Shown: positions 6,114 to 64,000 of the stretch, piece by piece
Layout of the letters: every line of letters starts with the position of its first letter
How positions within the stretch are numbered: the stretch's first letter is position 1
DNA from: Nitrosopumilus sp.
Lineage (GTDB): Archaea; Thermoproteota; Nitrososphaeria; Nitrososphaerales; Nitrosopumilaceae
Direction: 5' to 3'
DNA length: 64,000 bases
NCBI GenBank assembly: GCA_965205215.1
Contig: OZ242041.1
Coordinates: 1,856,001 to 1,920,000 of the forward strand
Notes under the pieces: generated by a model
Database searches by the model: none
What the model was told of the DNA's origin: nothing
What the model saw: the letters and a program-made list of their open reading frames with translations, nothing else
Position numbers and translations under genes: made by a program

Positions 6114-8627
6114 ATGAAGATCGCCATCGTATACAACAAAAAAAAGATTGACGACCAGGACGTGATCAACGTGTTTGGCGCGACCACGCTGGAGCACTAC
6201 TCGCACCGCACGGTGGAGCTGGTGGCCACCGCGCTGGAGCGCGGGGGGCATTCTGTAAAGATCATCGAGGGAGGAATGAGCTTTATCGAGGAGATGAAGG
6301 AGTTCATGCCGCGCGTGGTTTCGGGCAGCAGGCCCGGGATGGTCTTCAACATGGCGTACGGCATCCAGGGGCGCAACCGCTACACCCACGTTCCTGCCAT
6401 GCTCGAGATGCTCGGGATACCGTATGTGGGATCGGGACCCGAGGCCCACGCGGTGGTCCAGGACAAGGGAATGACTAAGATCGTCTTGCAGAGAAACGGC
6501 ATACCGACCCCCGGGTTCTGGATGTTTGGCTCCCCCGACGACGTGTTTGACGATCTGGTGTTTCCCGTGATCGTAAAGCCCAACATGGAGTCTACGTCCA
6601 TGGGGATGGACGTGGTAGACGACTGGGACAGCCTGCGCAGGTCGGTGCGAACCCAGATGGAAAAATACTCGCAGGAGATACTGGTGGAGCAGTTCATACC
6701 CGGCAGGGAGTTTGCAGTTGGGCTGCTTGGAAACGGGGCCAGCGTCGAGGTGCTGCCGATCGTGGAGATGGACCTTGGCGGCGATCCGAACCGCATACAG
6801 ACCATAACCGACAAGAAAGAGACGCCCGTTGAAAAGATCTGCCCCGCAGCTCTCGACGAGGAACAGTGCGCGCTCATGCGCAGGATTTGCCTTACGGCCT
6901 TTGGAAAGCTGGGTCTAAACGACTTTACCCGGGTAGACCTGCGCATGGCCGAAGACGGCAAGATCTACGTTTTGGAACTAAACTCGATGGCAAGCCTTGG
7001 CAAGACCGGTTCCTATTACACGGCTGCCAAGGCGGCGGGTTACTCGTATGACTCGCTGATCAACAAGATCCTCGACGTGGCGGCGATACGATACTTTGGG
7101 GAGTCTTCGCTCCAAGGCCGCTACAGCTACCACCACCACCAACATGACGACGACGGGGGCGGTGGCGCCGCGATCACGGGCATGGCAGCAGATGCGGCAC
7201 GCGCCGCGTCCGGGGGCGCAAGGCAGAGGGTGCAGGCGCGATCAAAGCCCGCGCCATCACCACACTCCGCGCCCCCGCTGCGCTCCATACTGCGGAGCTA
7301 TCTCAGGAGCCACCACACCACCAGTGAGAAACTGCTGCGACACCTAGTGATGACCAACTCCAGCGTCTACAACGTCGAGGAGGTCAACGAGATTGGCAGC
7401 ATCATGACCAAGAGGCTGGAGCACCTGGGGTTCGTGCCGCTCGTATACAAGGAGTTCGACGTGGGGGACATGATATACTATACTAACTATACGGGCGACT
7501 CTGCAGGCATTGACGTGCAGGCAGCAGCAGCGGCCGCAGCGGCCGCATCCCCCCCATCCGCTGCAGGCGGCTCGGGCGGCGCGGGCAGGACCGCCCGCAA
7601 GAACGACATCCTGATGCTGAGCCACCTCGACACGTGGTACTCCAACCGGGACTTTGCAGCGTTCCACAAGGCCGGCAGCAAGATGTACGGCTCGGGCATA
7701 GCCGAGTCCAAGGGGGGGCTTGTCACTATGCTGTCGGCGCTGCAGGCCCTGCGGTTTGCGCGCAGGCTCAAAAAGGCGCGGTGCGGCATACTGCTTGTAA
7801 CCGACGACTCGATAGGGGGGCGGTTCAGCAAGAAGCTGATCCGCGACATCGCGGCAGGCTACGACTACATAGTGGATCTCAAGTGGGGCATGCCAAACGG
7901 CGGCATCGCGACGTCGTGCTCTGGGATCACAAAGTATCACATCGACATGATGCACATAAGGCAGCGCGACGACACCATAAAGGACGTCATCCCGGACATG
8001 TGCAAAAAGGTCGTTGACTGGAAGAGGATGTCCGATTCGCACAACAGGGCAAGGGTCGTGATATCGGACATCTCGGCGCGCACCTCGTTTGGCAACTCGC
8101 CGGACTATGGCAGCCTCACGCTTACGACCAGGTACGTGACGCGGCGGCAGGGCGACGAGTTCGATTCCGAACTTCACAAGATCGCCAAAAAGAGGACAAA
8201 GTCCAAGCTTGACACGCACATCGTACAGCAGGCGAGGAGGAACCCCGTGGAAAAGACCGCAAAGACGCAGGGGTTCTTTGACATGGTCAGCAGGCTTGCC
8301 GACGAGTCCGACGTCGGGGTTTTGGAAGATCACAGGTATGCCTCATCCAGCCTCGGGGACATTGCGGACGCGGACAAGTTCGTGCTGGGCTCCATGGGCC
8401 CCGTGGGGGTCGACTACAGGACCCCGAATGAGCACATCATAAGCGACAGCATGATCGAGAGGGCCCTCCTGCTCGCGCTCGTCATCGACAAGCTTGCGTC
8501 TGAGAGGAACGAAGGCGGCGGCAAGAAGGGCGGAACGGCGGCGGCAAAAGAAGGGGCGCGGCGGCGGGCAGTGCATCGGATGCCGGCTGCAGACAACGCG
8601 GCCGCAGGTGGTGGGAGGCCGCAGTAG
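6114..8627 (+). CDS. D-Ala-D-Ala-ligase-like ATP-grasp domain fused to an M20-peptidase-like domain
   Basis: LEMLGIPYVGS, QDK, VKP, EQFIPGREF, RVDLR, LELN (ATP-grasp); C-terminal SHLDT, G.GIAESKGG (M20 fold). Confidence 0.85.
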   Translation: MKIAIVYNKKKIDDQDVINVFGATTLEHYSHRTVELVATALERGGHSVKIIEGGMSFIEEMKEFMPRVVSGSRPGMVFNMAYGIQGRNRYTHVPAMLEMLGIPYVGSGPEAHAVVQDKGMTKIVLQRNGIPTPGFWMFGSPDDVFDDLVFPVIVKPNMESTSMGMDVVDDWDSLRRSVRTQMEKYSQEILVEQFIPGREFAVGLLGNGASVEVLPIVEMDLGGDPNRIQTITDKKETPVEKICPAALDEEQCALMRRICLTAFGKLGLNDFTRVDLRMAEDGKIYVLELNSMASLGKTGSYYTAAKAAGYSYDSLINKILDVAAIRYFGESSLQGRYSYHHHQHDDDGGGGAAITGMAADAARAASGGARQRVQARSKPAPSPHSAPPLRSILRSYLRSHHTTSEKLLRHLVMTNSSVYNVEEVNEIGSIMTKRLEHLGFVPLVYKEFDVGDMIYYTNYTGDSAGIDVQAAAAAAAAASPPSAAGGSGGAGRTARKNDILMLSHLDTWYSNRDFAAFHKAGSKMYGSGIAESKGGLVTMLSALQALRFARRLKKARCGILLVTDDSIGGRFSKKLIRDIAAGYDYIVDLKWGMPNGGIATSCSGITKYHIDMMHIRQRDDTIKDVIPDMCKKVVDWKRMSDSHNRARVVISDISARTSFGNSPDYGSLTLTTRYVTRRQGDEFDSELHKIAKKRTKSKLDTHIVQQARRNPVEKTAKTQGFFDMVSRLADESDVGVLEDHRYASSSLGDIADADKFVLGSMGPVGVDYRTPNEHIISDSMIERALLLALVIDKLASERNEGGGKKGGTAAAKEGARRRAVHRMPAADNAAAGGGRPQ

Positions 8628-53001: not shown

Positions 53002-56000
53002 ATGGCTCAAAAGCGATTGCAGGCGGGGATGGTGATGACAAGTGGTGCGGGGGGGCGGACGGCGCGTGCGCGCATACGCGGGCCGCGCAGGCGCGCCGGC
53101 AACGGTGGCAGCAGAAACGGGGCCGGGACGGCCATGCACATCTTTGTCGGGAAGCGGGGCAGGGGGCGCACCGGCGTGGCGCGTGCCAGAAGAACGGCGC
53201 GTAACGTATGGCGCGCGTCGTGCGGGCCGTGCCATGCCGTCATCGTAATGGCCGCAATAGTCGCGGCATCGTGCGCCGCGGCAGACACCGCGGTCTGGGC
53301 GGACCACTCGCCGACCAGCTGCATACTGCACGTGCGCGGCGAGTCACACCCCGTCACGTACCGGGGCGAGCCGCGGCAGAACCCCGACGGCACCTACTAC
53401 CCGGGGGACGCGTTCTACTACATATTCAGGTGGGAGGACAGGTCCGACGAACCCGGCGACTGTATAGTCCATGCGCCGCTCCTTGAGAGCGGTAGGCTTC
53501 TGCTTGGCCACCATACCGTACGGGTGGACGGCGAGGGCCGCATGTTTCGCAGCGCGCCATTAACGCACACCGACCTCGATCCGGCAGTCGGGTTCCTGAG
53601 CGAGACGGACTTTTACGCCGGCAAGATGCAGGTGGAGTGCCAGGCGTCGTTTGCAAAGCCCGGCGAGTCCTGGCGTACGCGGTGGGAGCAGTGGACCGTG
53701 TATGACAGGGTGTTCCTCACAAAGGACGGCACAGACAGGCTGACGGAGTTTGAAATGACGCTCAAGTCCAAGGCGTACCGCGGGGAGCCCGCCTGGGAGT
53801 GGTGGGAGGATAAGGGCAAGATGAGGAGCGGCCACCCGGAGCTGCCAGAGTGCCCGTTCAAGTCGCGGCCAGGGGGTCCGGGGGAGCCGCAGGCGGGACT
53901 GCCCGCGTACATGAGGCACTACGGCGGCGGCATATTCTACGCCACGTCGTACGCGTGGGGGATCATGACAGGCAGTGGCAACGCGTCGCACGCGCACCTG
54001 GCCGCGATGCCCGCCGACCCCGACAGCACGACGTGGTTTGGAGAGCGCGTGCAGGAGATGTGCGGCAGGTCCGCCCTGCCCGCCCGTGCAGGCTGCGTGT
54101 ACGGGACGGCCGAGGTACGGCCTGACAGGGAGGTGTGCATGTCCGATGCAGTCGACTCGTACGCGCGACTGCTGGACGCGTGGCACACGGGGCTGCCGCC
54201 GTACGACGTCGCCGGTGCAGACGGCAGACCTGTTGAACCGCCGCCGGAACCGCCGCCCGGGTACCCGGCGTCGTCGTGGGGGCACCTGCTGGCCAACCGG
54301 ACGTATCCGTTTGACGTGCGGACGCCGCCGCCCGGCATTGCATCTGAGACATACGGGGCGCCGGCAGGCGACATATGCGCAACCGCGTCGTCCGACGGGG
54401 CAAAGCTCGAGCTGACCGTGTCGGGCACCTATCTGACGCCACACCACCGCGCAAACGACATACCGGTAAAGGGGATCAAGGAGGTCGCAAGGGATGTAGG
54501 GCCGCCTCTACAGGACGGCGAGCTGCGCATCATACTGACAAAGCCGCCGCTGCATCATATGGAGGGGTATGACGCCAAGAATGCCGACGGCACATACTAC
54601 CATAACGACCCGATATACGTGCGCCACGAACCGTCGTGGAAGTGGAAGGACGAGCGCAGCGCTCACGTAAGCTTTGCGACGCACCGCCTGCTCCCATTCA
54701 CGCTCCCGGTAATAGACGAGTTTGACTGTCCTCCGCCGCCGCCGTCAGATGACGGGAACGGCGCCGCCGCGCCCGCCCCACATACGGCGGCTCCGCCGTG
54801 CGAACATACGGTCGGGGTGGACTCGCCGCCGTGGCTGGCCGAAAAGATGCGGTTCGGCAACGGCGATGGGCTGACGGTCCGGACCGCCAACGCGTCGCAC
54901 GGTTTCGGCACGTACACATTCTCATACAGCATGACCGCTTACAACCTCGGCAAACAGGTCGCAGACGCGACAAACTCCACCGAGGCCGAGGTCGTGCCGT
55001 ACGAGCCGTTCTACGAGACGGTGTACTCGTATCCAGTGCTTGCGGACGCCCGCGAGTACGCCTTTGACGACCGGCACGGGATCGCCATAAGGTACGGCGG
55101 GAGCTGGCAGGACGACGTACTGCATCCGATGCGTCGCTCGTTCATCAACGGGTGGGACGGGGCGGGCGGGGGGCACGACCCGTACGCCTTCAACCGCTTT
55201 GGGCAGGAACACATGCTCGACACGGGCCGCAACGCCTCGCCCAACCGCACCGCGCTGGAGCACGCACGGGGCACGCAGACTGCCATGTTCGTGCAGAGCG
55301 GGCACGGTACGGTCCTGTTTGAGTGGCCCGTATCCGGATGGGTGTTCTCCGCGCATAACCAGACTGCAGTGGGGGAACCGGCCCTCGCCACTGCTGCAAA
55401 GGCGGCAGTCCACGAGAATGTCACGGCGCATCTGCAGGTCTACAGCCGCGACTTTGCGGACAAGGACACCCTGCTGTACGAGACTACGATGCGCTATCCA
55501 GAAATGCCGTTTGCAAAGCAAGTGACGATACAGTCGATAGATCATACCGGCGCCGTACAGACTACGGATGACATAACGTTGCGGGTGACGCCATATGCGG
55601 AATTAGGAGCCGAATATTTGACGGACTACATACGAGACAAGATAACGTGGGATACGGGTGACCCTGTCATATCCCAGATCGTCGTAAACGACACTCATCC
55701 CATGGCGCAGGAGTGGCGCGCGTCCGGCGGCATGATCAACACCACGGTGCTGCGCACGTCCGTCCACTTTGGCGACATTGCGATGCAGAACGGCACGGGA
55801 CTACAGTTCAGCGGTAGGCTGACTGATATCCACAAGCTGGCAGAGCACCCCGAGACGCTCCGTCTTACCGCCCCGTACGACCTGGGACTAAGCGTGGTGG
55901 CCCCGACGTCCCTGCACATTATGATAAACGGCTCCGGCGGGCATGTCATCCACCACAAGTACTATCCGTTTGGCGGCAGCGAGACTGTCAGCATCAACGC

Positions 56001-56340
56001 CCAAAAGGACAACCCAGCAGACGTCTCAAGGGAACAGGGCCGCATCGTCATAAAACCACCCGAAAACTTTGGGATCATCAAGCATGTCGAGATAAACGGC
56101 ACGCGCCTACAACAACCGTGCCCCACGGGGTGCACCGCGTCGTTCCAGCCCGACACCGCCTTGGACATAGTACTATACAACGAGTGGGGTGGCGAGGCCC
56201 GCGGCATAGTCAACGTGTCGAGAACCGTTAATCCCTCACAGGCGAGTGAACCTGGGTGGCAGATCGTGGGATTGGCCGCTACATTGCTGGCGCTGTCATA
56301 CGCGGCATACAAAAGGCTGACAAAGAAATTCCGATGGTGA
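53002..56340 (+). CDS. Large secreted protein with C-terminal membrane anchor
   Basis: Signal-like segment near aa 75-100 (true start probably downstream); C-terminal TM plus YKRLTKK; duplicated N.DGTYY motif. Confidence 0.75.
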   Translation: MAQKRLQAGMVMTSGAGGRTARARIRGPRRRAGNGGSRNGAGTAMHIFVGKRGRGRTGVARARRTARNVWRASCGPCHAVIVMAAIVAASCAAADTAVWADHSPTSCILHVRGESHPVTYRGEPRQNPDGTYYPGDAFYYIFRWEDRSDEPGDCIVHAPLLESGRLLLGHHTVRVDGEGRMFRSAPLTHTDLDPAVGFLSETDFYAGKMQVECQASFAKPGESWRTRWEQWTVYDRVFLTKDGTDRLTEFEMTLKSKAYRGEPAWEWWEDKGKMRSGHPELPECPFKSRPGGPGEPQAGLPAYMRHYGGGIFYATSYAWGIMTGSGNASHAHLAAMPADPDSTTWFGERVQEMCGRSALPARAGCVYGTAEVRPDREVCMSDAVDSYARLLDAWHTGLPPYDVAGADGRPVEPPPEPPPGYPASSWGHLLANRTYPFDVRTPPPGIASETYGAPAGDICATASSDGAKLELTVSGTYLTPHHRANDIPVKGIKEVARDVGPPLQDGELRIILTKPPLHHMEGYDAKNADGTYYHNDPIYVRHEPSWKWKDERSAHVSFATHRLLPFTLPVIDEFDCPPPPPSDDGNGAAAPAPHTAAPPCEHTVGVDSPPWLAEKMRFGNGDGLTVRTANASHGFGTYTFSYSMTAYNLGKQVADATNSTEAEVVPYEPFYETVYSYPVLADAREYAFDDRHGIAIRYGGSWQDDVLHPMRRSFINGWDGAGGGHDPYAFNRFGQEHMLDTGRNASPNRTALEHARGTQTAMFVQSGHGTVLFEWPVSGWVFSAHNQTAVGEPALATAAKAAVHENVTAHLQVYSRDFADKDTLLYETTMRYPEMPFAKQVTIQSIDHTGAVQTTDDITLRVTPYAELGAEYLTDYIRDKITWDTGDPVISQIVVNDTHPMAQEWRASGGMINTTVLRTSVHFGDIAMQNGTGLQFSGRLTDIHKLAEHPETLRLTAPYDLGLSVVAPTSLHIMINGSGGHVIHHKYYPFGGSETVSINAQKDNPADVSREQGRIVIKPPENFGIIKHVEINGTRLQQPCPTGCTASFQPDTALDIVLYNEWGGEARGIVNVSRTVNPSQASEPGWQIVGLAATLLALSYAAYKRLTKKFRW

Positions 56341-56479
56341 AAAGTTGGAGCTAGACGTCAAGTATTCCGTTGCACCATCTTACATACCCTACGTGAACTC
56401 CACCCTTACGACATGACGCTCATCTATGTAAGCTCGGCCGCCACCAACCACGCGGCCACACACCGCTTCGAGAACTTAC

Positions 56480-56843
56480 AGATAGCTAACGGCTACTATA
56501 GCGACAAGGTTCTACGACAAGCTCAGCACGGAAAACTACAACGGCTTTCTGACAAGGACATACGGCCAATGCGACGGGTTCGTGACGTTCTCGGATAACA
56601 CCTCGCACTACAAGTCAAAAACACCAAGGAGGTCCATCAAGCGCATGAACGGAAGATCAAGGCATACTGCTTCCCGCCGTACACGCCAGAGCTGAAACCG
56701 GCAGAGGCGAAATACAAATAGCTCAGAAAAACAGCCGTGAGCCGCCCATATGAGAACGCAGAGAAGTGCAAGGATTCACCAATACAATGCCGCGTGAGAA
56801 AGAGATTCCGGTTGTAAAGGCATTTGACTACCTAGCTTGTTGA
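56480..56843 (+). pseudogene. Degraded IS630-family transposase fragment
   Basis: FSDNTSHYKSK (DNAxYH-like) and FPPYTPELKPAE (PxYSPELNPIE-like) with frameshifts and an in-frame TAG; boundaries approximate. Confidence 0.8.
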
Positions 56844-56869
56844 CTAAGCACTACGAGATCACGATCAAG

Positions 56870-57547
56870 TCAATGTCTGGGAGGTTTGTTATTTTTCCAT
56901 ATGTTGCAAATTTTTTCACCATTGCTCCAAACGTCAACCTGCACAACATAATTTTTAATATCCGGAATTCCATAGTCAACTGCCAACTCCACAACTGCAT
57001 CTCCGCTTTTTTTCTTGTATTCATCGAATGGATAGTCTTTAATTCGTTTAAATGATTGTGGTCCTCGTCTTCCCTTGTTGTATATGATTGCTCCCGAATT
57101 AATTTTGCACAGTGTTATTTTGTTCTCATACTTTTGAACCAATTTTTTGGTATCAACAGTCAGCACGTCGTGAGATTTGTCCTTATATGCACGAGCTTTG
57201 AGTAAGGCAACTAGCCGTTTTTCCTTCACCCAGAAGAATGTCCGTTTATTAAGTAGTCTGTAAAATTGGCTGGTGGTAGTGTTGTCCTCCAATAAATTAA
57301 TCAGTTTTCTTTCAGGTAATGGCTTTTGATCTCTTATTACCGCATCTTCATATTTTTCGTTACTAATAGGTACGCTCTCAGGCCGGAAACATGACTCAAT
57401 TTCATTTCTTCGCTTCCCCCGTATGTCGTACATATCAAGTAGGGCCGTAGTACTCAGAAGCCCATATTTTTTGATACTAGGCCAACTTCCCAATTCGGCC
57501 ATATGGTACAAACAAGGATAATTACTAACTAGATCATCTACCTCCAA
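56870..57547 (-). CDS. DarT-like ADP-ribosyltransferase-fold protein (DUF7002-like)
   Basis: N-terminal LYHMAELGSWPSIKKYGLLS, central TFFW strand and C-terminal VVELAV match the H...E layout of DarT-type ARTs. Confidence 0.7.
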   Translation of the reverse strand: MEVDDLVSNYPCLYHMAELGSWPSIKKYGLLSTTALLDMYDIRGKRRNEIESCFRPESVPISNEKYEDAVIRDQKPLPERKLINLLEDNTTTSQFYRLLNKRTFFWVKEKRLVALLKARAYKDKSHDVLTVDTKKLVQKYENKITLCKINSGAIIYNKGRRGPQSFKRIKDYPFDEYKKKSGDAVVELAVDYGIPDIKNYVVQVDVWSNGEKICNIWKNNKPPRH

Positions 57548-57553
57548 CGGCTT

Positions 57554-59155
57554 TCACCATGTTCTCCTGTCTATTATACTTCTGTCATTAAAACCCGTCA
57601 CAATCAACGAAACTTTGACTTTTGTAACCTGCTCGATTTCCTCAATCATTTTAACGGTTTCAGAAGTTAGCTGTTCAACTCTCTGAACAGACTCATTTTC
57701 TGCAGAAATATAATCAGTAAATGTCAAAGCAATGTCCGTAGCTCCATTTAGAAACGCAGCCTTTTTGATACAAGTCCAATCAAATTCACCAATTCTACGA
57801 CGTCTTCCGGTTGTAGATGTTCTTTCGGTTTTTCTTAGCTCCGTTAAATTTTTGCCCGAACGCCTAGCCACTTCTTCTAGTGTTATTTCTAGAGGCAATA
57901 GGCCGGAAGTACCTTCTGGAGGGTCTTGAACACGTATAGGATATGTTCGGGCGACCATTATGACGCGTCTTATCAAGCGCGGCGGAATTCCTGCATCGGC
58001 CATACACCCTGAGACGGTAGTTTCTCTAGATGTAACATGTGGATAAAGTCCATGATGAATGCTCAGTCCGGTTCCCTGCGTGCCTTCAAGTAGAATTCTT
58101 TTGTTATTTGCAATTGCAGCTTCTAGTACTTCAATTGCTGGTCTAAGATAGGGTTTTAGTTTTGGAATATCTTTGGCTAGTTTTACGTTATTACAGCGTA
58201 AAATTTTACGGGAAGTTGCATATCCCACCCCTTGGCCTGTCGAACCAATCGTTTTTACAATAGTTCTTTTTTCATTTCTTATATCCGATTCCTTTATGAT
58301 CATGGCATTAGGATCAATGCTCAGTCGTTCATGATCAACATTACACTCAGATATTTCTTTTTGTAGTTTCTTTACATTGATTACCATTCCAGGCCCAAGT
58401 AAAATTTTAGCATCACCTCTACGCGTTCCTGAAGGAAGTTGGTTGTGGGTGTAACTTGTTGGAACTTCAGGGACTTTGTGGCCTGCATTCGGCCCACCGA
58501 CCCTAACCAACAGGTCATACTCTTGTGACAGATATGCTGCAATTTGCCCTTTTCCCTCACTGCCAAATTGTCCACCGATTATAACATCCACATATCCTGT
58601 TTTATTTTTATCATGCAGAGATATTCTACTAGCAGCTCGCACCAACACATCGTCTTTACGAGAGCGGCGTGTGTCTATTACAACATCAGCATCGCGAGAT
58701 AGGGATTCGATGGTTTTTTCAGTTTTGGTTCTGCATACCGCGTCATATGTTGGCATTTGATTATTTTTTTTGGGTCGCTTGCAATATCTTTTCTGTAATT
58801 CTTCACGAGGCGCTGTAAGATGCAAATGGACTATAGGGCCAAACGATTTTCTTATTTCGCTGATTTGTTTTTTGGTTCGAACCGAGTCTACAATAAAGAT
58901 TGGTTGTTCTTTTTCCCTCATTGCTTTGCTAAGTAGATTTCTTACCCATTTACCATTCGTCTGTCTATCTAATCGATCACTTGTTTTTTGTAGAGACAAT
59001 TGATCGTTAGGAGCACCGGGGTATAGATTAATTAATTCATCACAGGTTTTAACTACAAATGCATCAAAGCTTTTTTCGAGGCGTTCTGCAAGTTCGGATT
59101 TTCCCGAGGCAACAGGACCAGAAATGACAATGATCTTCTTGGACAAAAGGAACAT
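57554..59155 (-). CDS. P-loop nucleotide kinase fused to a PurZ0-like adenylosuccinate synthetase
   Basis: ISGPVASGKS and IVDSVR (kinase); GGQFGSEGKG, GGPNAGH, IGSTGQGVG, EGTQG, YPHVTSR, RTYPIRV, TTGRRRR, LTFTDY. Confidence 0.88.
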   Translation of the reverse strand: MFLLSKKIIVISGPVASGKSELAERLEKSFDAFVVKTCDELINLYPGAPNDQLSLQKTSDRLDRQTNGKWVRNLLSKAMREKEQPIFIVDSVRTKKQISEIRKSFGPIVHLHLTAPREELQKRYCKRPKKNNQMPTYDAVCRTKTEKTIESLSRDADVVIDTRRSRKDDVLVRAASRISLHDKNKTGYVDVIIGGQFGSEGKGQIAAYLSQEYDLLVRVGGPNAGHKVPEVPTSYTHNQLPSGTRRGDAKILLGPGMVINVKKLQKEISECNVDHERLSIDPNAMIIKESDIRNEKRTIVKTIGSTGQGVGYATSRKILRCNNVKLAKDIPKLKPYLRPAIEVLEAAIANNKRILLEGTQGTGLSIHHGLYPHVTSRETTVSGCMADAGIPPRLIRRVIMVARTYPIRVQDPPEGTSGLLPLEITLEEVARRSGKNLTELRKTERTSTTGRRRRIGEFDWTCIKKAAFLNGATDIALTFTDYISAENESVQRVEQLTSETVKMIEEIEQVTKVKVSLIVTGFNDRSIIDRRTW

Positions 59156-59158
59156 CTC

Positions 59159-60538
59159 CTAATTAGTTACCAGATTGTCATGGGCGTAATCTAGTAATAT
59201 GCTTTGATCAGCGTTCGGTTGTTTTTTCCATACTAAATCATAAACTGTAACTGCAACGTTGTTTTTAACCAGATGGCCGTCAATTAGTTCACTAATAATT
59301 TTCCAATCGCCACCAGCAAACCCAGTTCCTATTCGTGGCATATGAACTGAAGCAGATTTTTCTTTAGCTTCAGCGGCCAATGACTCTAAGCATTTTGCAA
59401 GATGCCTATAGCGTATTTTTGGATGAGGTGATGCTGCAAGCCCATGTTGTGCAACCATGCTAAAAATAGTCAGGTCCTCCGAAATGCAGAAAGAATGTGA
59501 TTGTCCTAATTTAAGATTATTTGGCTCAGTAGCCCACCTCACAAACGATGTCCGGAGTTCCGGCCATTCAGTGGAAATGACTTTGCCAAACCCTCTGCCC
59601 CATCTTTTGCTTTTATCATTTGCAATATGCGCAATAATTTTATGGTTTTTTCCGCGCGGTTTTGTAGCATCGCCAACTACGTAGGCAATCTTAAGTGGTT
59701 CTGAAGCTGTATTTGCTTTGGATTTTATGATTGCAAGCACTCTGGGGTAAATACTGCCAGAATATGGAGAAACGCCAATGCACTCAATCTCTAAGTAAGG
59801 TAATTCGCTGAATAATTTTTCACGACGTTTGGAAGAAGTCCACCCAACAGCTGTACACTCTGACAAAACGCTATCCGATGAAATTTTCGAGCCCGCATAA
59901 ATTGGCAAGGTCGAGGTGTGCGAGCGAACCACATACTCAATTCTATACGGCGCATTATCAGTATCTGTTGTTTTTGCAGCTGAAAACATGGTTACGGGCT
60001 GATCTGTAATTTTTATCATACGGAGCAGTGCCGCTTCGGTGGAAACGTGATATTTATCTTTAATTGCAATTATGTTACTCATTTTAATTGGAATTTTTTG
60101 TATTTCTGATGCTGGTCCAAATGGCATAAGAATCTCAGCAGCTGAAACATTACAAAGAAGTTCTATTTGCCAATCATCAGATCGTTTTAAACGACCCGAC
60201 CTATTATGGATCGATTTTTTATAATCGGGAAATAATGTATGTGCAATCTCATGAGCAAGTGAAAATCTAATTCTTGCATATGACCGATTTGGGTTAAATT
60301 CAATTTCTGGATTCCCAGAAGTTGGCATTATCCTTGCGTCAGGAATATCGGTGTTTGGAACGACAGAAATTTTCCTTAGTTCAGCAAGTTGAAATGGATC
60401 GTATGGAGGACCATCCCAACCATTATCCATTGCATCCAAAACCAGTTGCCGTGTTTTGTCAACTATTGTCTCCAAGGGATCATCTTGTCCAGCTAATTCT
60501 TTTACAGAAGGATTAGTCCATTGAATTTTGTTAGGCAT
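59159..60538 (-). CDS. ImmA/IrrE (M78) zinc peptidase fused to a DarG/Poa1-like macrodomain
   Basis: RIRFSLAHEIAH, ELLCNVSAAEILMP, YHVSTEAA; C-terminal VVGDAT, IAHIAND...WGRGF, MPRIGTGFAGGDW. Confidence 0.88.
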   Translation of the reverse strand: MPNKIQWTNPSVKELAGQDDPLETIVDKTRQLVLDAMDNGWDGPPYDPFQLAELRKISVVPNTDIPDARIMPTSGNPEIEFNPNRSYARIRFSLAHEIAHTLFPDYKKSIHNRSGRLKRSDDWQIELLCNVSAAEILMPFGPASEIQKIPIKMSNIIAIKDKYHVSTEAALLRMIKITDQPVTMFSAAKTTDTDNAPYRIEYVVRSHTSTLPIYAGSKISSDSVLSECTAVGWTSSKRREKLFSELPYLEIECIGVSPYSGSIYPRVLAIIKSKANTASEPLKIAYVVGDATKPRGKNHKIIAHIANDKSKRWGRGFGKVISTEWPELRTSFVRWATEPNNLKLGQSHSFCISEDLTIFSMVAQHGLAASPHPKIRYRHLAKCLESLAAEAKEKSASVHMPRIGTGFAGGDWKIISELIDGHLVKNNVAVTVYDLVWKKQPNADQSILLDYAHDNLVTN

Positions 60539-61265
60539 TACTTAAAGTCTGAGATAACAGGAAATATACTTTTCCACAAAGAACCGGAAAGGCCTAGGGA
60601 CATGATCGTCTCTGGAGAACAAGAGACATGGCGATAGGCTAGACACGTAGGCGGCAGGGTTCCGAGGTTCTACCCCCGAACACGTGCTCAAAGCCTAGGT
60701 AGTGCTCGTTGTATGCTTTGGGTTGCCACCAGTGCTCAAACTTGTCCCTCTGGTAGGTACGGGTTATCTGCTTGGCGGGCTCCGGCTTGAGCACGACAAG
60801 GTTTGGGATTGATGTCATGTTGTTGCATACGACAAAGTAGTCGATGCGGTCAAGGACGCCCAACCCGGTCAGAAACGGCACGAGATTCTCGCGTGAAAAT
60901 ACCCTAATTTTCAGCACGAAATGTGTGTCGTCGCCGAATATCTTAGAGCGCCTGCATGCCCTCCTTGACCACGTCTATCTTTCAACCGAGGACAGCTCGC
61001 CTGCCGCGTACGTAGAGAACACCGGCGGCCCGGACATCTAAATTTGAACCCATCGCATCGCAAAACGTCGTGTGATTATTAAGCATTATAGCAATCAAGA
61101 CGGAGGCGAACAAAACAGCAATGAGCATGCTAGTGCCACATTGTGAAGAGGCGCCTCCACCCTAACTCCGATGTGCCCCGTTTTCCAGTGAAGAGCATGT
61201 CTCTAGGCATTTCCAATCCCTACCTGTCACAAAACCCAAGTTGGTGGTTTCTTGTTTGTATATTT

Positions 61266-61865
61266 TTACTGGCTTGAGGTGTTATCTTGAGATCGTTCCA
61301 ATACGATGTCACCTATGGTTCCACGTCCCCGTCCAGTATAATATTGCCCGCATAGAGTAGAACCTGTAAGTCTCAATCTTGCTGTGCCGCTATGAATCTG
61401 CATTGATTTAGGCGCCATAGCCATTGGATCGTTCTCATAAACATACACCAGCTCTGGTGATGTGGGATCATCTGTCAGAAAGCTAGCTGCAACGCTTCTG
61501 GAATGAGACTCTTCGGCCTCAAGTCGAACCAGTATTTTAGTCCACTGCTGTGTTATAACTAAAGATATAGAATGGACATTGCCATCTGACTCGTATGAAG
61601 AGGTAAGCTGGCCTTCCCACCGTCCATTTAGATTGGGTACCGTAACAAGACCGCGATTTCGTAGCAGCGGCCACTTCCATATGAAATGATCGAATGCGTA
61701 GTAGAGCACCCGATATATTCCAACAGCTGAAAATGCATCGATTAGCCACTGAAACTCCAAATTGATAGCACTTAGCGCATTATGTACATATCCTGTCAAC
61801 AGGACGCTTATTGTCAACAAGAAAACGATTACGGTTTTACTACGGCTCGGACTATAGACATTCAT
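61266..61865 (-). CDS. cap15: CBASS Cap15 effector (2TM + beta-barrel)
   Basis: Two TM helices, FDHFIWKW, PNLNGRWEG.L.SS, I.QQW, Y.YENDP, H.GTA, GQYYTGR. Confidence 0.88.
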   Translation of the reverse strand: MNVYSPSRSKTVIVFLLTISVLLTGYVHNALSAINLEFQWLIDAFSAVGIYRVLYYAFDHFIWKWPLLRNRGLVTVPNLNGRWEGQLTSSYESDGNVHSISLVITQQWTKILVRLEAEESHSRSVAASFLTDDPTSPELVYVYENDPMAMAPKSMQIHSGTARLRLTGSTLCGQYYTGRGRGTIGDIVLERSQDNTSSQ

Positions 61866-61874
61866 GTAGGTTAG

Positions 61875-62750
61875 TCAACCCCAATCGTTCCACAATGTTA
61901 CAAGATGATCAGAGAGTTCCACGGCATGCTCAATGGACCATTGCTCGGCACTTGAACCAAACAAGTACTCTTGGTTGTTCTGACAAACAGCCTCGTTTAG
62001 ATCGCACATGCGCATCCACTTTACTATGGAATAGTAAATGTCTTGAAGACGGCCTTGAAAGGCACGATTCGGGGCATTGTATATGAGACACTCCAAAAAG
62101 TAAGACGGAGCAAGATTCTGACTGATCTTTTTGGTATCCACCAAACGATTTCGGGCGTTCTTAAACATTCGGACTGTTTGTTTGTATAGGCCGTCCGTGC
62201 GCCAGTTCTTTTCTGCGCCCCATTTATAATGTTCATTGGGATAATTGATTACACAACGCTTGTCGCGTAAGGTAAAAAATTTGATGCCTTTCACAAAAGA
62301 GTCTAGAGAATTATACTTGCGATACTCTGTGCAGACGACCACGTCTGCCGCCAGCCTAGACGAGCCTGATTTAATTTTGATAGATTTGTTTCCTTCTTCT
62401 ACAGATGCGCCGAATTCACTACGTAGTGCATCAAGAGTAGCGGTTCTGAATTCAGTCCACGTATACGCGGAAGTTCGAAACGAGCCTTCTAGTTTGTGGC
62501 GATCGGATAGAGACAACGAACTGCAATCATGATAAAAAGCATGGTTTAGTTTTATGACCACATCTACGTCACTGTCGCCCCGGATATTGGTGTCGTTTTT
62601 GTAAGAACCCTGTAGGAAGAAATCATAAGTCATTTGCTCGGGCCATGAATAAGAGTCAAGTGCATCGCGTATGGACTCATGAGTTAACTTAGAATTGGTT
62701 TGGGATCCATGATGAGACCATCGTCCTAATTGTGACTCTGGAATAGTCAT
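61875..62750 (-). CDS. CBASS cGAS/DncV-like nucleotidyltransferase, CdnE-like
   Basis: FLQGSYKNDTNIRGDSDVDVV, GNKSIKI, ADVV, INYP..H, YKQTVRMFKN, PSYFLECLIYNAP. Confidence 0.92.
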   Translation of the reverse strand: MTIPESQLGRWSHHGSQTNSKLTHESIRDALDSYSWPEQMTYDFFLQGSYKNDTNIRGDSDVDVVIKLNHAFYHDCSSLSLSDRHKLEGSFRTSAYTWTEFRTATLDALRSEFGASVEEGNKSIKIKSGSSRLAADVVVCTEYRKYNSLDSFVKGIKFFTLRDKRCVINYPNEHYKWGAEKNWRTDGLYKQTVRMFKNARNRLVDTKKISQNLAPSYFLECLIYNAPNRAFQGRLQDIYYSIVKWMRMCDLNEAVCQNNQEYLFGSSAEQWSIEHAVELSDHLVTLWNDWG

Positions 62751-63126
62751 CTTTGAAGTTAGCCATCCACTCACAAATATATCCATACGCTCAGACATGT
62801 CCTATGATCTAACGCAAGCGGGCATTGGCATCCACACGCGCACAAACCAAACCGTACCCTGACACCTAGGAAAGTCGAAAAACCCCAACCAACAGCGTTT
62901 GGAAGAGCGCCAATATCCAACAGTGTACGGTGCGATACAGCTATCCCTACATCCCAAAGTCGATTCTTGTCACGCTTGACAACCTCAGGAGGCCGCAGTT
63001 AGTCATACAGGGAACCAAGATACCAGTCACCGTCTAGACTAGTTATGGATAGCTCAGACGCACGTTAGATCCGTACCAACCATAGTTTCTAGAGAATCCG
63101 CGCGCGCAGTCGCTTAAAAATGAACT

Positions 63127-64000
63127 GTGGCACCCACCGCGTTGAAGAACAACGACAATTATGCCATATGCAGATTCGATGACCGGGCGCCTGACCCGGA
63201 CGTAGTCCAAGAGTACGTAGTGGGGCAGACAGGGGCAAAAGCCCGCGTCCACATTACTCGAGACGGCCGCTATATCATAAGGGAGCCGCCCCTCACCGTA
63301 CGCGCCGAAATGGCGTACAGGCGGCTCATGCAGAACATACACCACTCCTTCACATACCGTAGCATATCCCGCGACGACGTCATCCCGCTGCTAAAGCGCA
63401 CGCTAGAGGAGGAGTCAAAGGCGACAAACGACTTTGAGGTGTGGAGGCGCGAAAAAGAGGCAGTCGAGTACTACCTGGTCCGCGATATAGCCGGATACGC
63501 CGAGCTTGACGTCCTGATAAGGGACCCGCACATAGAGGACATCCTGTGCCTCCACTGGAACAGGCCCGTGGCAGTAGTGCACCGCGAGTATCCCCACCAC
63601 ACCTTGCTGAGCACGAACGTCACGTTCCAGACCGAATCGGCGCTGGAGCGGCTCATCCAGCGGATATCCCAAAAGTATGGCGAGCCGCCCAGCGAGACCC
63701 GCCCCATGACCTCGTTTTCCGACGAGCGCGGCATACGCTACACGTTCACCGGGAACAGGAAGATCACGCCGGACAGCCCGACCGCATCCATCAGAAAGCC
63801 GTCCGTATCGGCCGTTACGATATGCCACCTGCTGCAGAGCGGCCTGCTCTCCGTGCTGGCGGCCTCATACCTCTGGTGCGTAATGGACCTCAAGGGGTTC
63901 GGCCTGGTGATCGGGGCTCCATCAGCTGGTAAGACCACCATGATAAACGCCATATTTACGATGTCAAACCCCAACTGGCACTACTTTACCATAGAGGACG
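63127..64000 (+). CDS. Type II/IV secretion ATPase (VirB11/FlaI/CpaF family), truncated by the window end
   Basis: Hand-translated from GTG 63127: YYLVRDIAGYAELDVLIRDPHIEDI, SIRK, GAPSAGKTT, TIED. Confidence 0.88.
   Translation, partial: MAPTALKNNDNYAICRFDDRAPDPDVVQEYVVGQTGAKARVHITRDGRYIIREPPLTVRAEMAYRRLMQNIHHSFTYRSISRDDVIPLLKRTLEEESKATNDFEVWRREKEAVEYYLVRDIAGYAELDVLIRDPHIEDILCLHWNRPVAVVHREYPHHTLLSTNVTFQTESALERLIQRISQKYGEPPSETRPMTSFSDERGIRYTFTGNRKITPDSPTASIRKPSVSAVTICHLLQSGLLSVLAASYLWCVMDLKGFGLVIGAPSAGKTTMINAIFTMSNPNWHYFTIED

Follow-up and report, generated by a model that had tools for sequence, protein, structure and literature searches.

Adenylosuccinate synthetase (PurA) has two kinds of phage relatives, PurZ and PurZ0, in which Ser occupies the position of the catalytic Asp13 of the Escherichia coli enzyme; Asp333 of that enzyme recognizes the guanine of GTP. 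In PurZ (from phages phiVC8 and S-2L and from Acinetobacter and Salmonella phages), an ATP/dATP user, the Asp333 position is held by Gln or Asn, which according to the structural account reads adenine and would clash with guanine, and a loop after the conserved Val presses on C2′ and disfavours ribonucleotides (PMC8342488). PurZ-type enzymes are known from phages, where they serve to replace adenine by 2-aminoadenine (Z). Their cluster partners in Z-genome phages include DpoZ, DmtZ and MazZ (PMC12884076). The main text of this article, in which the word 'kinase' does not occur, places four archaeal sequences whose catalytic site has Ser or Gly basal to PurZ and PurZ0, the only cellular sequences of this kind mentioned in the literature searched. 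Other described systems of interest are DarTG, where the ADP-ribosyltransferase (ART) DarT1 or DarT2 is paired with DarG or NADAR, and the antiviral dCTP deaminases (AvcD), where an N-terminal P-loop kinase-like domain precedes a nucleotide-base-converting enzyme. Here, we analysed a gene at positions 57554..59155 (minus strand) of a 64,000-nucleotide stretch of Nitrosopumilus sp. DNA (GCA_965205215.1, contig OZ242041.1, positions 1,856,001 to 1,920,000; this whole stretch is called the window), which encodes a P-loop kinase fused to a PurZ-like synthetase (kinase-PurZ) and lies between genes for an M78 metalloprotease-macrodomain protein (M78-macro) and a DUF7002 protein.

Our reading, to which we assign a probability of about 0.5, is that this bifunctional nucleotide enzyme is the core of a mobile three-gene conflict cassette of the toxin-antitoxin or anti-phage type that resembles DarTG. 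The main accounts in the literature already cover the biology of phage PurZ and PurZ0, the basal archaeal Ser/Gly sequences and a genomic neighbourhood of an ART with an adenylosuccinate synthetase. In the literature searched there was no kinase-PurZ fusion or clade of such fusions, no M78-macro partner, no presence of the fusion in a Z-type phage cluster and no proposal of a PurZ-like cellular conflict cassette, and the supplements of PMC12884076 and PMC8342488 might hold such sequences; likewise, it held nothing on DUF7002 by name, nor on an adenylosuccinate synthetase as an anti-phage kinase fusion or in defense islands, and nothing relevant on PurZ together with an ADP-ribosyltransferase.

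The kinase-PurZ protein and its relatives

The features of the gene are as follows.

57554..59155, minus strand: kinase-PurZ-like open reading frame (ORF), 533 aa, gene 2 of 3 in the cassette (ORF list; Pfam, PADLOC and NCBIfam; 24-sequence alignment)
58601..59155, minus strand: nucleoside monophosphate kinase-like P-loop domain, aa 1-185 (profile against PDB, hhalign, PADLOC dCTPase model)
59096-59119, minus strand: P-loop GPVASGKS, aa 13-20
57557..58600, minus strand: PurZ-like synthetase domain of the short archaeal type, aa 186-533 (phmmer against PDB; PHROG)
58547..58564, minus strand: GSEGKG, aa 198-203, with Ser199 at the position of the PurA catalytic Asp13 (alignments)
57929..57943, minus strand: YPIRV, aa 405-409, with a 6-residue insertion and then GTSG behind it; corresponds to the 'Y[ST]TRVG' loop of PurA in its PurZ/PurZ0-type form (alignment)
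57713..57715, minus strand: codon of Asp481 (TFTDY), equivalent to PurA Asp333, which recognizes the guanine of GTP (alignments)

Pfam assigned target residues ~189-531 to PF00709 (Adenylsucc_synt; 5.5e-61, 207 bits) and residues 6-185 to P-loop kinase families (AAA_18, 1e-11; AAA_33, 5.9e-9; AAA_17; Zeta_toxin, 3.4e-6). When the synthetase domain was compared with the PDB by phmmer, Pyrococcus horikoshii PurA scored best (4.5e-54), followed by phiVC8 PurZ (5e-35), S-2L PurZ (3e-28) and PurZ0 7VF6 (4e-28), and the domain matched the PHROG family 'aminooxy adenylosuccinate synthetase' at 9.6e-71.

Conservation was judged from an alignment of 24 kinase-fused homologues (53-84% identical), and residues were mapped onto E. 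coli PurA, numbered without the Met. The segment G198-S199-E200-G201-K202-G203 was invariant in 24/24 sequences, with S199 falling on Asp13, and P406-I407-R408-V409 and D481, the latter on D333, were also invariant, with Y405 present in at least 90% of the alignment. An earlier note on this DNA, made from the sequence alone, had singled out GSEGKG as an Asp13-to-Ser change, YPIRV as PurZ-like and the guanine-specifying Asp as retained, and all three observations hold across the family: YPIRV is common to the target and the fetched phage PurZ and PurZ0 sequences, whereas E. coli PurA has YSTRV and the genome's own PurA has YVTRV, and the Asp333 equivalent is kept in PurA, the target family and four fetched PurZ0 proteins but is Asn in three PurZ proteins and a Bacillus phage homologue. 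The STGxG segment, which had been taken for another PurZ-like sign, is not diagnostic, since the housekeeping PurA of the same genome carries IGSTGSG where the target and PurZ have IGSTGQG. Overall, the changes that the target shares with PurZ/PurZ0 are D13S, YPIRV in place of Y[ST]TRV with the insertion and xTSG (GTSG in PurZ, xxSG after a small insertion in PurZ0), and GxGAA in place of GxGPA.

Among the PurA residues retained by the fused family are the phosphate-loop Gly and Lys (K16), N38, G40, H41 and Q224, and invariant R320 falls at E. coli R143 by an ungapped count from the STG motif, where the automated alignment was gapped. The aspartate-loop residues T300, T301, R303 (as Arg or Lys) and R305 are retained as well, and for this reason an amino-dicarboxylate would be a plausible co-substrate of the domain. 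As the phosphate donor we favour GTP, both for PurZ0 and for the kinase-fused family, judging from Asp333, which is kept in these two groups and is Asn in PurZ; the original PurZ0 paper reportedly favours GTP for PurZ0, too. The published statements diverge on this point, as ATP/dATP use is presented as an adaptation of PurZ relative to PurZ0 in bioRxiv 10.1101/2025.10.22.683976, whereas the donor preferences of PurZ0 and PurZ are worded in the opposite way in PMC12884076.

The target is not a housekeeping PurA. A second PF00709 locus in the same 2.10-Mb genome, ~154 kb from the target, has GDEGKG, YVTRVG and TKLD and reaches 495 bits on the archaeal PurA equivalog NF003295 (cut-off 368), whereas the target yielded 294.4 bits (hmmscan) or 296.1 bits (genome search) on this model, 215 bits on the bacterial purA model TIGR00184 (cut-off 395.55) and 194.5 bits on the NCBIfam PurZ model NF038379 (cut-off 300), all of them under the cut-offs. 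Furthermore, a kinase-fused paralogue was found in 1/121 sampled genomes of the same phylum, namely the source genome only; the sample included 3 genomes from its genus and another 12 from its family.

When 1.84 billion cluster representatives were searched with the synthetase domain, 8432 matches were obtained at E <= 1e-3, and 143 full-length alignable rows were assembled from the best 150 representatives, selected homologues of the first search and reference sequences. Position 13 in these rows was mostly Ser, with a few Gly, Asn and Cys, and Asp was confined to E. coli PurA, the genome's own PurA and 5 representatives. In a first tree (105 rows, IQ-TREE LG+G4, quick search), 12 housekeeping archaeal PurAs formed one side (support 91) and all Ser/Gly13 rows lay behind a branch with a support of 97, with phage PurZ (100) and PurZ0 (100) as separate clades and a kinase-fused clade (99) of 37 rows, comprising 31 fused proteins and 6 that had no kinase part. 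A second tree (76 rows, run to completion, 1000 ultrafast bootstraps/Shimodaira-Hasegawa-like approximate likelihood ratio test) separated the Ser/Gly13 side from housekeeping PurA at 100/94 and recovered the fused clade, with the target inside, at 100/98 (62 rows) and PurZ and PurZ0 at 100/100 each; here the target was placed outside the monophyletic phage PurZ0 clade. Positions 13 and 331/333 were S and FD in all fused rows and S and MD in PurZ0 rows. Forcing the target together with housekeeping PurAs was rejected by the approximately unbiased (AU) test (delta log likelihood 243.9, p 1.4e-64). From the clade support and this rejection, we conclude that the target represents a lineage of its own with a predicted PurZ/PurZ0-like active site, standing beside, not inside, phage PurZ and PurZ0. 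A phylogeny of PurA, PurZ and PurZ0 was the check that the earlier note had named, and its outcome, along with the canonical copy elsewhere in the genome and the missed cut-offs, agrees with the claim that the enzyme is no housekeeping PurA; the label 'PurZ0-type' is apt for Ser13, the retained Asp333 and YPIRV but not for descent, given the separate fused clade.

Comparison with the individual relatives gave the same picture. With PurZ0 (Gordonia phage Archimedes, 7VF6; Arthrobacter phage Wayne) the target shares the short archaeal-type PurA scaffold and the Ser/Gly13 superclade, but identity is ~30%, the residue at 331 is Phe and not Met, T300/T301/R303 are PurA-like, an adenylate kinase (Adk)-like domain is added at the N terminus, and the gene is cellular and sits in an ART/macrodomain cassette instead of beside dutZ, dmtZ or DpoZ. 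Relative to PurZ, it keeps Asp at the D333 position and differs in clade and genomic context. Housekeeping archaeal PurAs (P. horikoshii 5K7X/2D7U and the genome's own copy), which include its best solved relatives, have the same short architecture and align end to end, but the target has Ser13 and is an extra, horizontally acquired and kinase-fused copy.

The N-terminal domain was examined with a kinase profile built from 21 family sequences. Its best match in the PDB was Sulfolobus SSO1041 (AdkA-like; 2.5e-10), with adenylate kinases following at E values of up to 4e-5, and hhalign aligned the domain with E. coli Adk (probability 89%, E 2.3e-6), setting 'VDSVR...Q' on Adk 'LDGFPR...Q', so that D90/R93/Q97 correspond to D84/R88/Q92 and R123/R127 to R119/R123. 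In Adk these five residues bind the nucleoside monophosphate, with Q92 recognizing the 6-amino group. Since equivalents of them are present, we favour a 6-aminopurine monophosphate as the probable kinase substrate, e.g., the 2-aminoadenine nucleotide (d)ZMP or the succino-adduct. The kinase part (~155-320) of the PADLOC antiviral dCTPase model was matched by 18/21 family domains (best E 2.5e-10), and PADLOC 'VakA' by 19/21; the parallel with AvcD that the earlier note had drawn thus has a basis in homology. The catalytic domains differ, that of the target being a PF00709 PurA-family ligase and not a deaminase, and nothing points to an RNA antitoxin. The implied layout of a stand-alone AvcD-like effector did not hold up, as the target sits between two partner genes in a conserved operon of three that is predicted to act in ADP-ribosylation.

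The partner proteins, linkage and island

The two partner genes and the surrounding island are listed below.

59159..60538, minus strand: M78-macro protein, 459 aa, with an IrrE/PprI/CapP-like M78 metalloprotease, a beta-rich middle and a C-terminal macrodomain (aa ~284-435)
56870..57547, minus strand: DUF7002 protein, 225 aa, predicted DarT-like ADP-ribosyltransferase fold (Pfam DUF7002, 5.5e-63; AlphaFold2 (AF2); Foldseek)
56341..63042, no strand: low-GC island with the cassette and a CBASS (cyclic-oligonucleotide-based anti-phage signalling system) operon, approximate borders (GC content)

By pattern scanning of 185,579 genomes (one per species), 514 relatives were identified and confirmed (tblastn E <= 1e-3), and all synteny counts rest on the best 79 distinct loci among them. 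These loci came from Nitrososphaerota, Bathyarchaeia, Thermoplasmata, Methanobacteriota, Dehalococcoidia, Acidobacteriota, Verrucomicrobiota, Planctomycetota, Myxococcota, Actinomycetota, Pseudomonadota and others. With the flanking proteins of the window as tblastn queries, M78-macro was found upstream in 74/79 loci and DUF7002 downstream in 68/79, and Pfam added 10 loci with divergent DUF7002 copies (78/79 in total). At nearly all loci the genes share a strand in the order M78-macro, kinase-PurZ, DUF7002, and their frames abut or overlap; at one locus (L068) kinase-PurZ and DUF7002 are fused in one continuous ORF. No other neighbour cluster occurred in more than 7 of the 79 loci. Thus, a large kinase-fused sister clade of PurZ/PurZ0 exists in archaea and many bacterial phyla; at the 79 loci it is almost always locked in an operon, often within islands of defence or mobile-element genes.

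In the M78-macro protein, the protease part was recognized by Pfam M78 (2.3e-8) and PADLOC capP (6e-20), and it has an intact HExxH motif (HEIAH, aa 96-100) with H96, E97 and H100 invariant. In the PDB, a profile of the protein matched IrrE (3.7e-10) and CapP (2e-9) with its N-terminal part, and BT1257 (4.5e-50), a Streptomyces macrodomain (4.8e-46), ALC1 (6e-21) and TARG1 (2e-11) with its C-terminal part. The AF2 model (mean predicted local distance difference test score, pLDDT, 82.8) gave Foldseek matches to PprI/IrrE, including a complex of PprI with single-stranded DNA (ssDNA), and to CapP over ~260-300 alignment columns, a length which indicates that the likeness spans the protease and the beta-rich middle domain, and its macrodomain matched DarG (5.5e-7), TARG1 and Poa1p. 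The macrodomain is of the TARG1/ALC1/DarG type.

The DUF7002 family has invariant H15, GL-ST (29-33), R55, R72-D73, FFW (104-106), NxG and E187. For its AF2 model (pLDDT 93.4), the best Foldseek match in the PDB was DarT1 of E. coli C7 with NAD+ (E 1.5e-4, template modelling score 0.48/0.51). With VIA-align, the top 7 rows were all DarT (Z 10.3-8.2, 146-160 residues), headed by DarT1 (Z 10.3, root mean square deviation 3.4, 160 residues), and were followed by Tpt1 (Z ~7.6, ~97 residues) and cholera/LT-type toxins (Z ~7), with Scabin also listed. The models thus point to a DarT-like ADP-ribosyltransferase fold with His/aromatic/Glu motifs, the comparison with DarT being one of fold and motif. 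A complex prediction of kinase-PurZ with DUF7002 scored 0.17, the mark being 0.32. Compared with DarTG, which likewise combines a DarT-like fold with a macrodomain protein of the TARG1/DarG kind, the cassette differs in that DUF7002 is a distinct family, the macrodomain is fused to an IrrE/CapP-like protease, and kinase-PurZ is intercalated.

DUF7002 has a counterpart in the literature under another name. The motifs Hxx, FFW and xxE of the 'Lmac_3114' ART family (BMC Genomics 2025, PMC12522546) equal the invariant H15, FFW104-106 and E187 of DUF7002, and on these motifs the two would almost certainly be the same ART family. That paper reports an adenylosuccinate-synthetase domain near Lmac_3114 in 60% of cases, and an AAA + AdSS + NUDIX operon; its treatment of the neighbourhood takes the synthetase as ordinary purine metabolism and offers only a vague purine/NAD-supply link, and makes no mention of the Asp13-to-Ser change, the relation to PurZ, the identity of the kinase, the M78-macro partner or archaeal hosts.

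The island measures 6.7 kb and has a GC content of 43.2%, compared with 61.3% for window positions 1-56340. The cassette is foreign in the source genome and moves horizontally, and its low-GC island, in which CBASS adjoins the cassette, is of the defence type. Between 50 and 64 kb of the window there was no tRNA gene, and the direct repeats at the island borders were short and looked like chance matches; no dutZ, dmtZ or Z-specific polymerase gene was found in the island (ORF list, Pfam).

Variant forms of the cassette were also noted. DUF7002 occurs in 24 plasmid records, with kinase-PurZ directly upstream in the one examined, a conjugative plasmid of Agrobacterium rubi (L169) that carries the two-gene form of kinase-PurZ and DUF7002; diverged DUF7002 genes also stand alone. 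On this plasmid (L169:3433-5024 and 7744-8292), a dCTP-deaminase/dUTPase-fold gene and an S-adenosylmethionine methyltransferase gene precede the two-gene cassette, and on the opposite strand after it there is a weak match to YfbR-like 5'-deoxynucleotidase, making for a neighbourhood rich in nucleotide metabolism. A Nitrososphaerota metagenome-assembled genome (MAG) has two opposite kinase-PurZ genes (L035:6001-7605 and L035:8384-11375), and an M78-macro gene accompanies the second of them, so that this locus has either a duplication or a double insertion of the cassette.

Proposed function and alternative explanations

Viral relatives and lyase genes bear on the chemistry, and the relevant genes are the following.

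L126:5986-7674, L127:5998-7578, L131:1020-2672: viral kinase-PurZ genes (IMG/VR contigs)
L018:8452-9792, L025:8950-10284, L072:3052-4545: extra adenylosuccinate-lyase genes beside the cassette (Dehalococcoidia MAGs)

The fused form was present in 9 of 45 IMG/VR loci, two of which (L130 and L136) come from opposite ends of a single contig, and 3 of the 45 carry the cassette: L125 and L129 have all of it, and L128 has kinase-PurZ and DUF7002 preceded by an additional kinase gene. A family-A DNA polymerase adjoins the fusion in L126 and L127, L126 also having a 5'-nucleotidase and a deoxynucleoside monophosphate kinase, and in L131 kinase-PurZ is followed by a fusion protein with NDT-like and MazG-like parts. 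These polymerase, NDT-like and MazG-like neighbours resemble the partners in published clusters of Z-genome phages, and L126, L127 and L131 may represent a Z-genome phage cluster of a type not yet described, with a nucleotide kinase built into PurZ itself. The tree places L127 and L131 immediately outside the clade of cassette enzymes but L126 within it, and L126 is 64% identical to a Sorangium cassette enzyme. Among cellular loci, a purB paralogue stands beside the cassette in 3/79, and another purB match lies elsewhere in all three genomes, the adjacent and distant copies scoring 293 vs 516, 511 vs 504, and 245 vs a partial 293 bits on a contig fragment (G123). The source genome has one purB (414 bits). 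With Z-type neighbours in viruses, adjacent purB paralogues and a single purB in the source genome, a PurZ-type reaction, followed by the lyase and then by the kinase step, would be the most economical reading of the fusion.

Under this reading, the PurZ0-like C-terminal domain would use GTP to phosphorylate O6 of a guanine nucleotide, most likely deoxyguanosine monophosphate (dGMP) and possibly GMP, and L-aspartate would then replace the phosphate to give N6-succino-2-amino-(d)AMP, which the cellular adenylosuccinate lyase would convert into (d)ZMP. The Adk-like N-terminal domain would phosphorylate this 6-aminopurine monophosphate or, less likely, supply the monophosphate substrate. The net effect would be that guanine nucleotides are drained and 2-aminoadenine nucleotides are made. 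The DarT-like enzyme would ADP-ribosylate a nucleic acid or a nucleotide; M78-macro would reverse or prevent this modification with its macrodomain, and its IrrE/CapP-type protease part would sense infection or DNA damage and release the system. We infer that the whole comprises a transferase toxin acting on nucleic acid, a macrodomain antagonist and a protease that senses ssDNA, and that it serves anti-phage or toxin-antitoxin functions.

If the proposed chemistry is correct, cells themselves make intermediates of the Z pathway, and nucleotide-based immunity would have a new effector logic, namely base conversion, instead of depletion or chain termination; an NAD-dependent DNA modification would be tied to purine conversion, with a bearing on the origin of phage Z-genome biosynthesis. 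A bolder form of this reading takes Z nucleotides as an immune weapon that archaea and bacteria make on purpose: upon sensing of ssDNA or damage by the protease, kinase-PurZ and the lyase would flood the pool with dZ nucleotides, which enter replicating viral DNA, the DarT-like transferase would ADP-ribosylate Z (or G) at its exocyclic 2-amino group, and the macrodomain would spare or repair host DNA, so that marking precedes blocking. We regard this as rather improbable, but if it were true, the phage Z-genome pathway could have its source, or a sink, in the cellular cassette.

Several points weigh against the conflict-cassette reading. The substrate (ribo or deoxy; GMP or other), the donor and the product are all deduced from motifs and relatives. 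Ser13 alone is no proof of guanine specificity, and R303, which in PurA contacts the ribose 2'-OH, is Arg or Lys in the fused family and speaks neither for nor against deoxy-specificity. The three purB-adjacent loci are all from Dehalococcoidia MAGs and may not be independent. Since versions with two genes and no macrodomain protein exist, and DUF7002 also stands alone, tolerance of the transferase would not always depend on the macrodomain protein, and a simple toxin-antitoxin system becomes less likely. Pfam DarT was matched by 0/25 DUF7002 members at E <= 1, and the Tpt1 family likewise by none; the DUF7002 profile reached DarT1 in the PDB at E 0.54 only. PADLOC has no model for the cassette, and DUF7002 matches nothing in PADLOC or NCBIfam. 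Finally, the presence of defence and mobile genes around the loci is suggestive only, as the survey had no matched control: of the nearest ORFs of at least 150 aa at the 79 loci, 149 were selected, 7 were dropped (5 for size, 2 as L016 duplicates) and 142 were scanned, and 14/142 were of restriction-modification or abortive-infection types (MvaI, XamI, MmeI, two HsdM, HsdR, ResIII, two more methylases, HNH_2, AIPR, Schlafen/AlbA_2, KAP NTPase and DUF3644) and 7/142 were transposase, integrase or ArdC genes.

Alternatively, kinase-PurZ could act on its own as a nucleotide sink in the manner of AvcD, depleting dGMP/dGTP through the succino-adduct upon infection, with the ART and the macrodomain protein forming a separate DarTG-like module that travels along. 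That AvcD-type enzymes defend cells by depleting a deoxynucleotide pool is well documented (PMC10511110), the antiviral dCTP deaminase has a related kinase domain, the retained D333 would have guanine nucleotide consumed both as substrate and as donor, and some viral contigs carry kinase-PurZ with no partner genes. However, the near-constant presence of DUF7002 with abutting or overlapping frames, the L068 fusion and the two-gene Agrobacterium plasmid form all speak for one unit, and the adjacent purB paralogues suggest that the succino-product is processed further and is no dead end; we therefore consider such a sink unlikely. The same holds, in our judgement, for chemistry on small molecules or RNA ends, in which the DarT/Tpt1-like transferase would add ADP-ribose to an RNA end or to the base or phosphate of a mononucleotide, the PurZ-like product being one candidate, and the kinase and a macrodomain of the ADP-ribose-1''-phosphate phosphatase type would process the adduct into a signal, a toxic nucleotide or a repaired RNA. 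Scabin, a toxin that modifies N2 of guanine, is among the structural matches of DUF7002, Tpt1/KptA is the next-best fold after DarT (Z 7.5-7.7), Poa1p, a phosphatase of that type, is among the matches of the macrodomain, and a Pseudomonas aeruginosa variant is described with NUDIX in place of the macrodomain (PMC12522546). Against this, the DarT matches on top cover ~150-160 residues vs ~97 for Tpt1, the kinase is adenylate-kinase-like and not polynucleotide-kinase-like, and the conserved neighbours include no RNA ligase or cyclic phosphodiesterase.

The viral branches raise another explanation, that the gene belongs to a virus or mobile element and is a leftover or cargo, out of context, for modifying the element's own DNA with 2-aminoadenine. 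It would account for the fused homologues in phage replication/nucleotide clusters next to or inside the cassette clade and for the cassette in viral loci, but it is hard to reconcile with an island devoid of polymerase, dATPase, MazG/DUF550, capsid or integrase genes and with a self-contained cassette in chromosomes of many phyla amid varied surroundings, and we give it little chance. An ordinary metabolic paralogue, i.e., a second adenylosuccinate synthetase joined to adenylate kinase for AMP/ADP synthesis or salvage, is scarcely credible. An archaeal PurA is indeed the best solved match, databases label the family 'adenylosuccinate synthase', and the fusion would suit a path from IMP via AMP to ADP; yet Asp13 is replaced in every fused homologue aligned, the PurA equivalog cut-offs are missed, the AU test rejects the grouping, the gene lies on a foreign low-GC island and is absent from the other 120 genomes sampled in the phylum, the genome already has a canonical PurA, and the linkage to the ART and the macrodomain is tight.

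Neighbouring genes

The CBASS operon in the island comprises two genes.

61875-62798, minus strand: CD-NTase (PADLOC cyclase, 2.3e-105; NCBIfam 'DS2_2 anti-phage nucleotidyltransferase', 296 bits, under the cut-off of 350)
61266-61865, minus strand: Cap15 effector with two transmembrane segments (PADLOC, 5.9e-61)

This compact operon (61266-62798, minus strand) is directly beside the cassette. M78-macro was considered as a CapP-like regulator of it and rejected as such, because M78-macro travels with kinase-PurZ and no CD-NTase cluster recurs among the loci.

Several Acidobacteriota loci have a gene resembling extracytoplasmic function (ECF)-type sigma factors (Sigma70_r2, 5e-9 to 6e-6) just upstream of M78-macro, which may be a lineage-specific regulator, and Dehalococcoidia loci have ORFs of ~236-258 aa with no Pfam match directly after DUF7002, the L022 equivalent of which has HNH_2; these may represent an optional fourth gene.

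L075:3783-4439, L081:3761-4426, L084:3747-4418, L086:3762-4412: ECF-sigma-like genes, in a neighbour cluster of 7 loci (Pfam)
L031:8314-9042, L033:4441-5169, L040:8323-9051, L059:8326-9054 and similar ones: post-DUF7002 ORFs

Lenient Pfam scans of recurrent unnamed neighbours (the ~240-aa post-DUF7002 ORFs of Dehalococcoidia, ~310-aa ORFs at L028/L034/L036 and a 92-aa ORF at 60639-60917 of the window) gave only weak ECF-sigma matches. A search for sequencing runs listed 4 runs of DNA or unknown type in 3 studies and no RNA run.

The island is flanked on both sides by plus-strand ORFs with the GC content of the host, as read from their translations: one of 1112 aa with a hydrophobic C-terminal tail (53002-56340), and one with the P-loop GAPSAGKTT that runs off the window (63127-63999).

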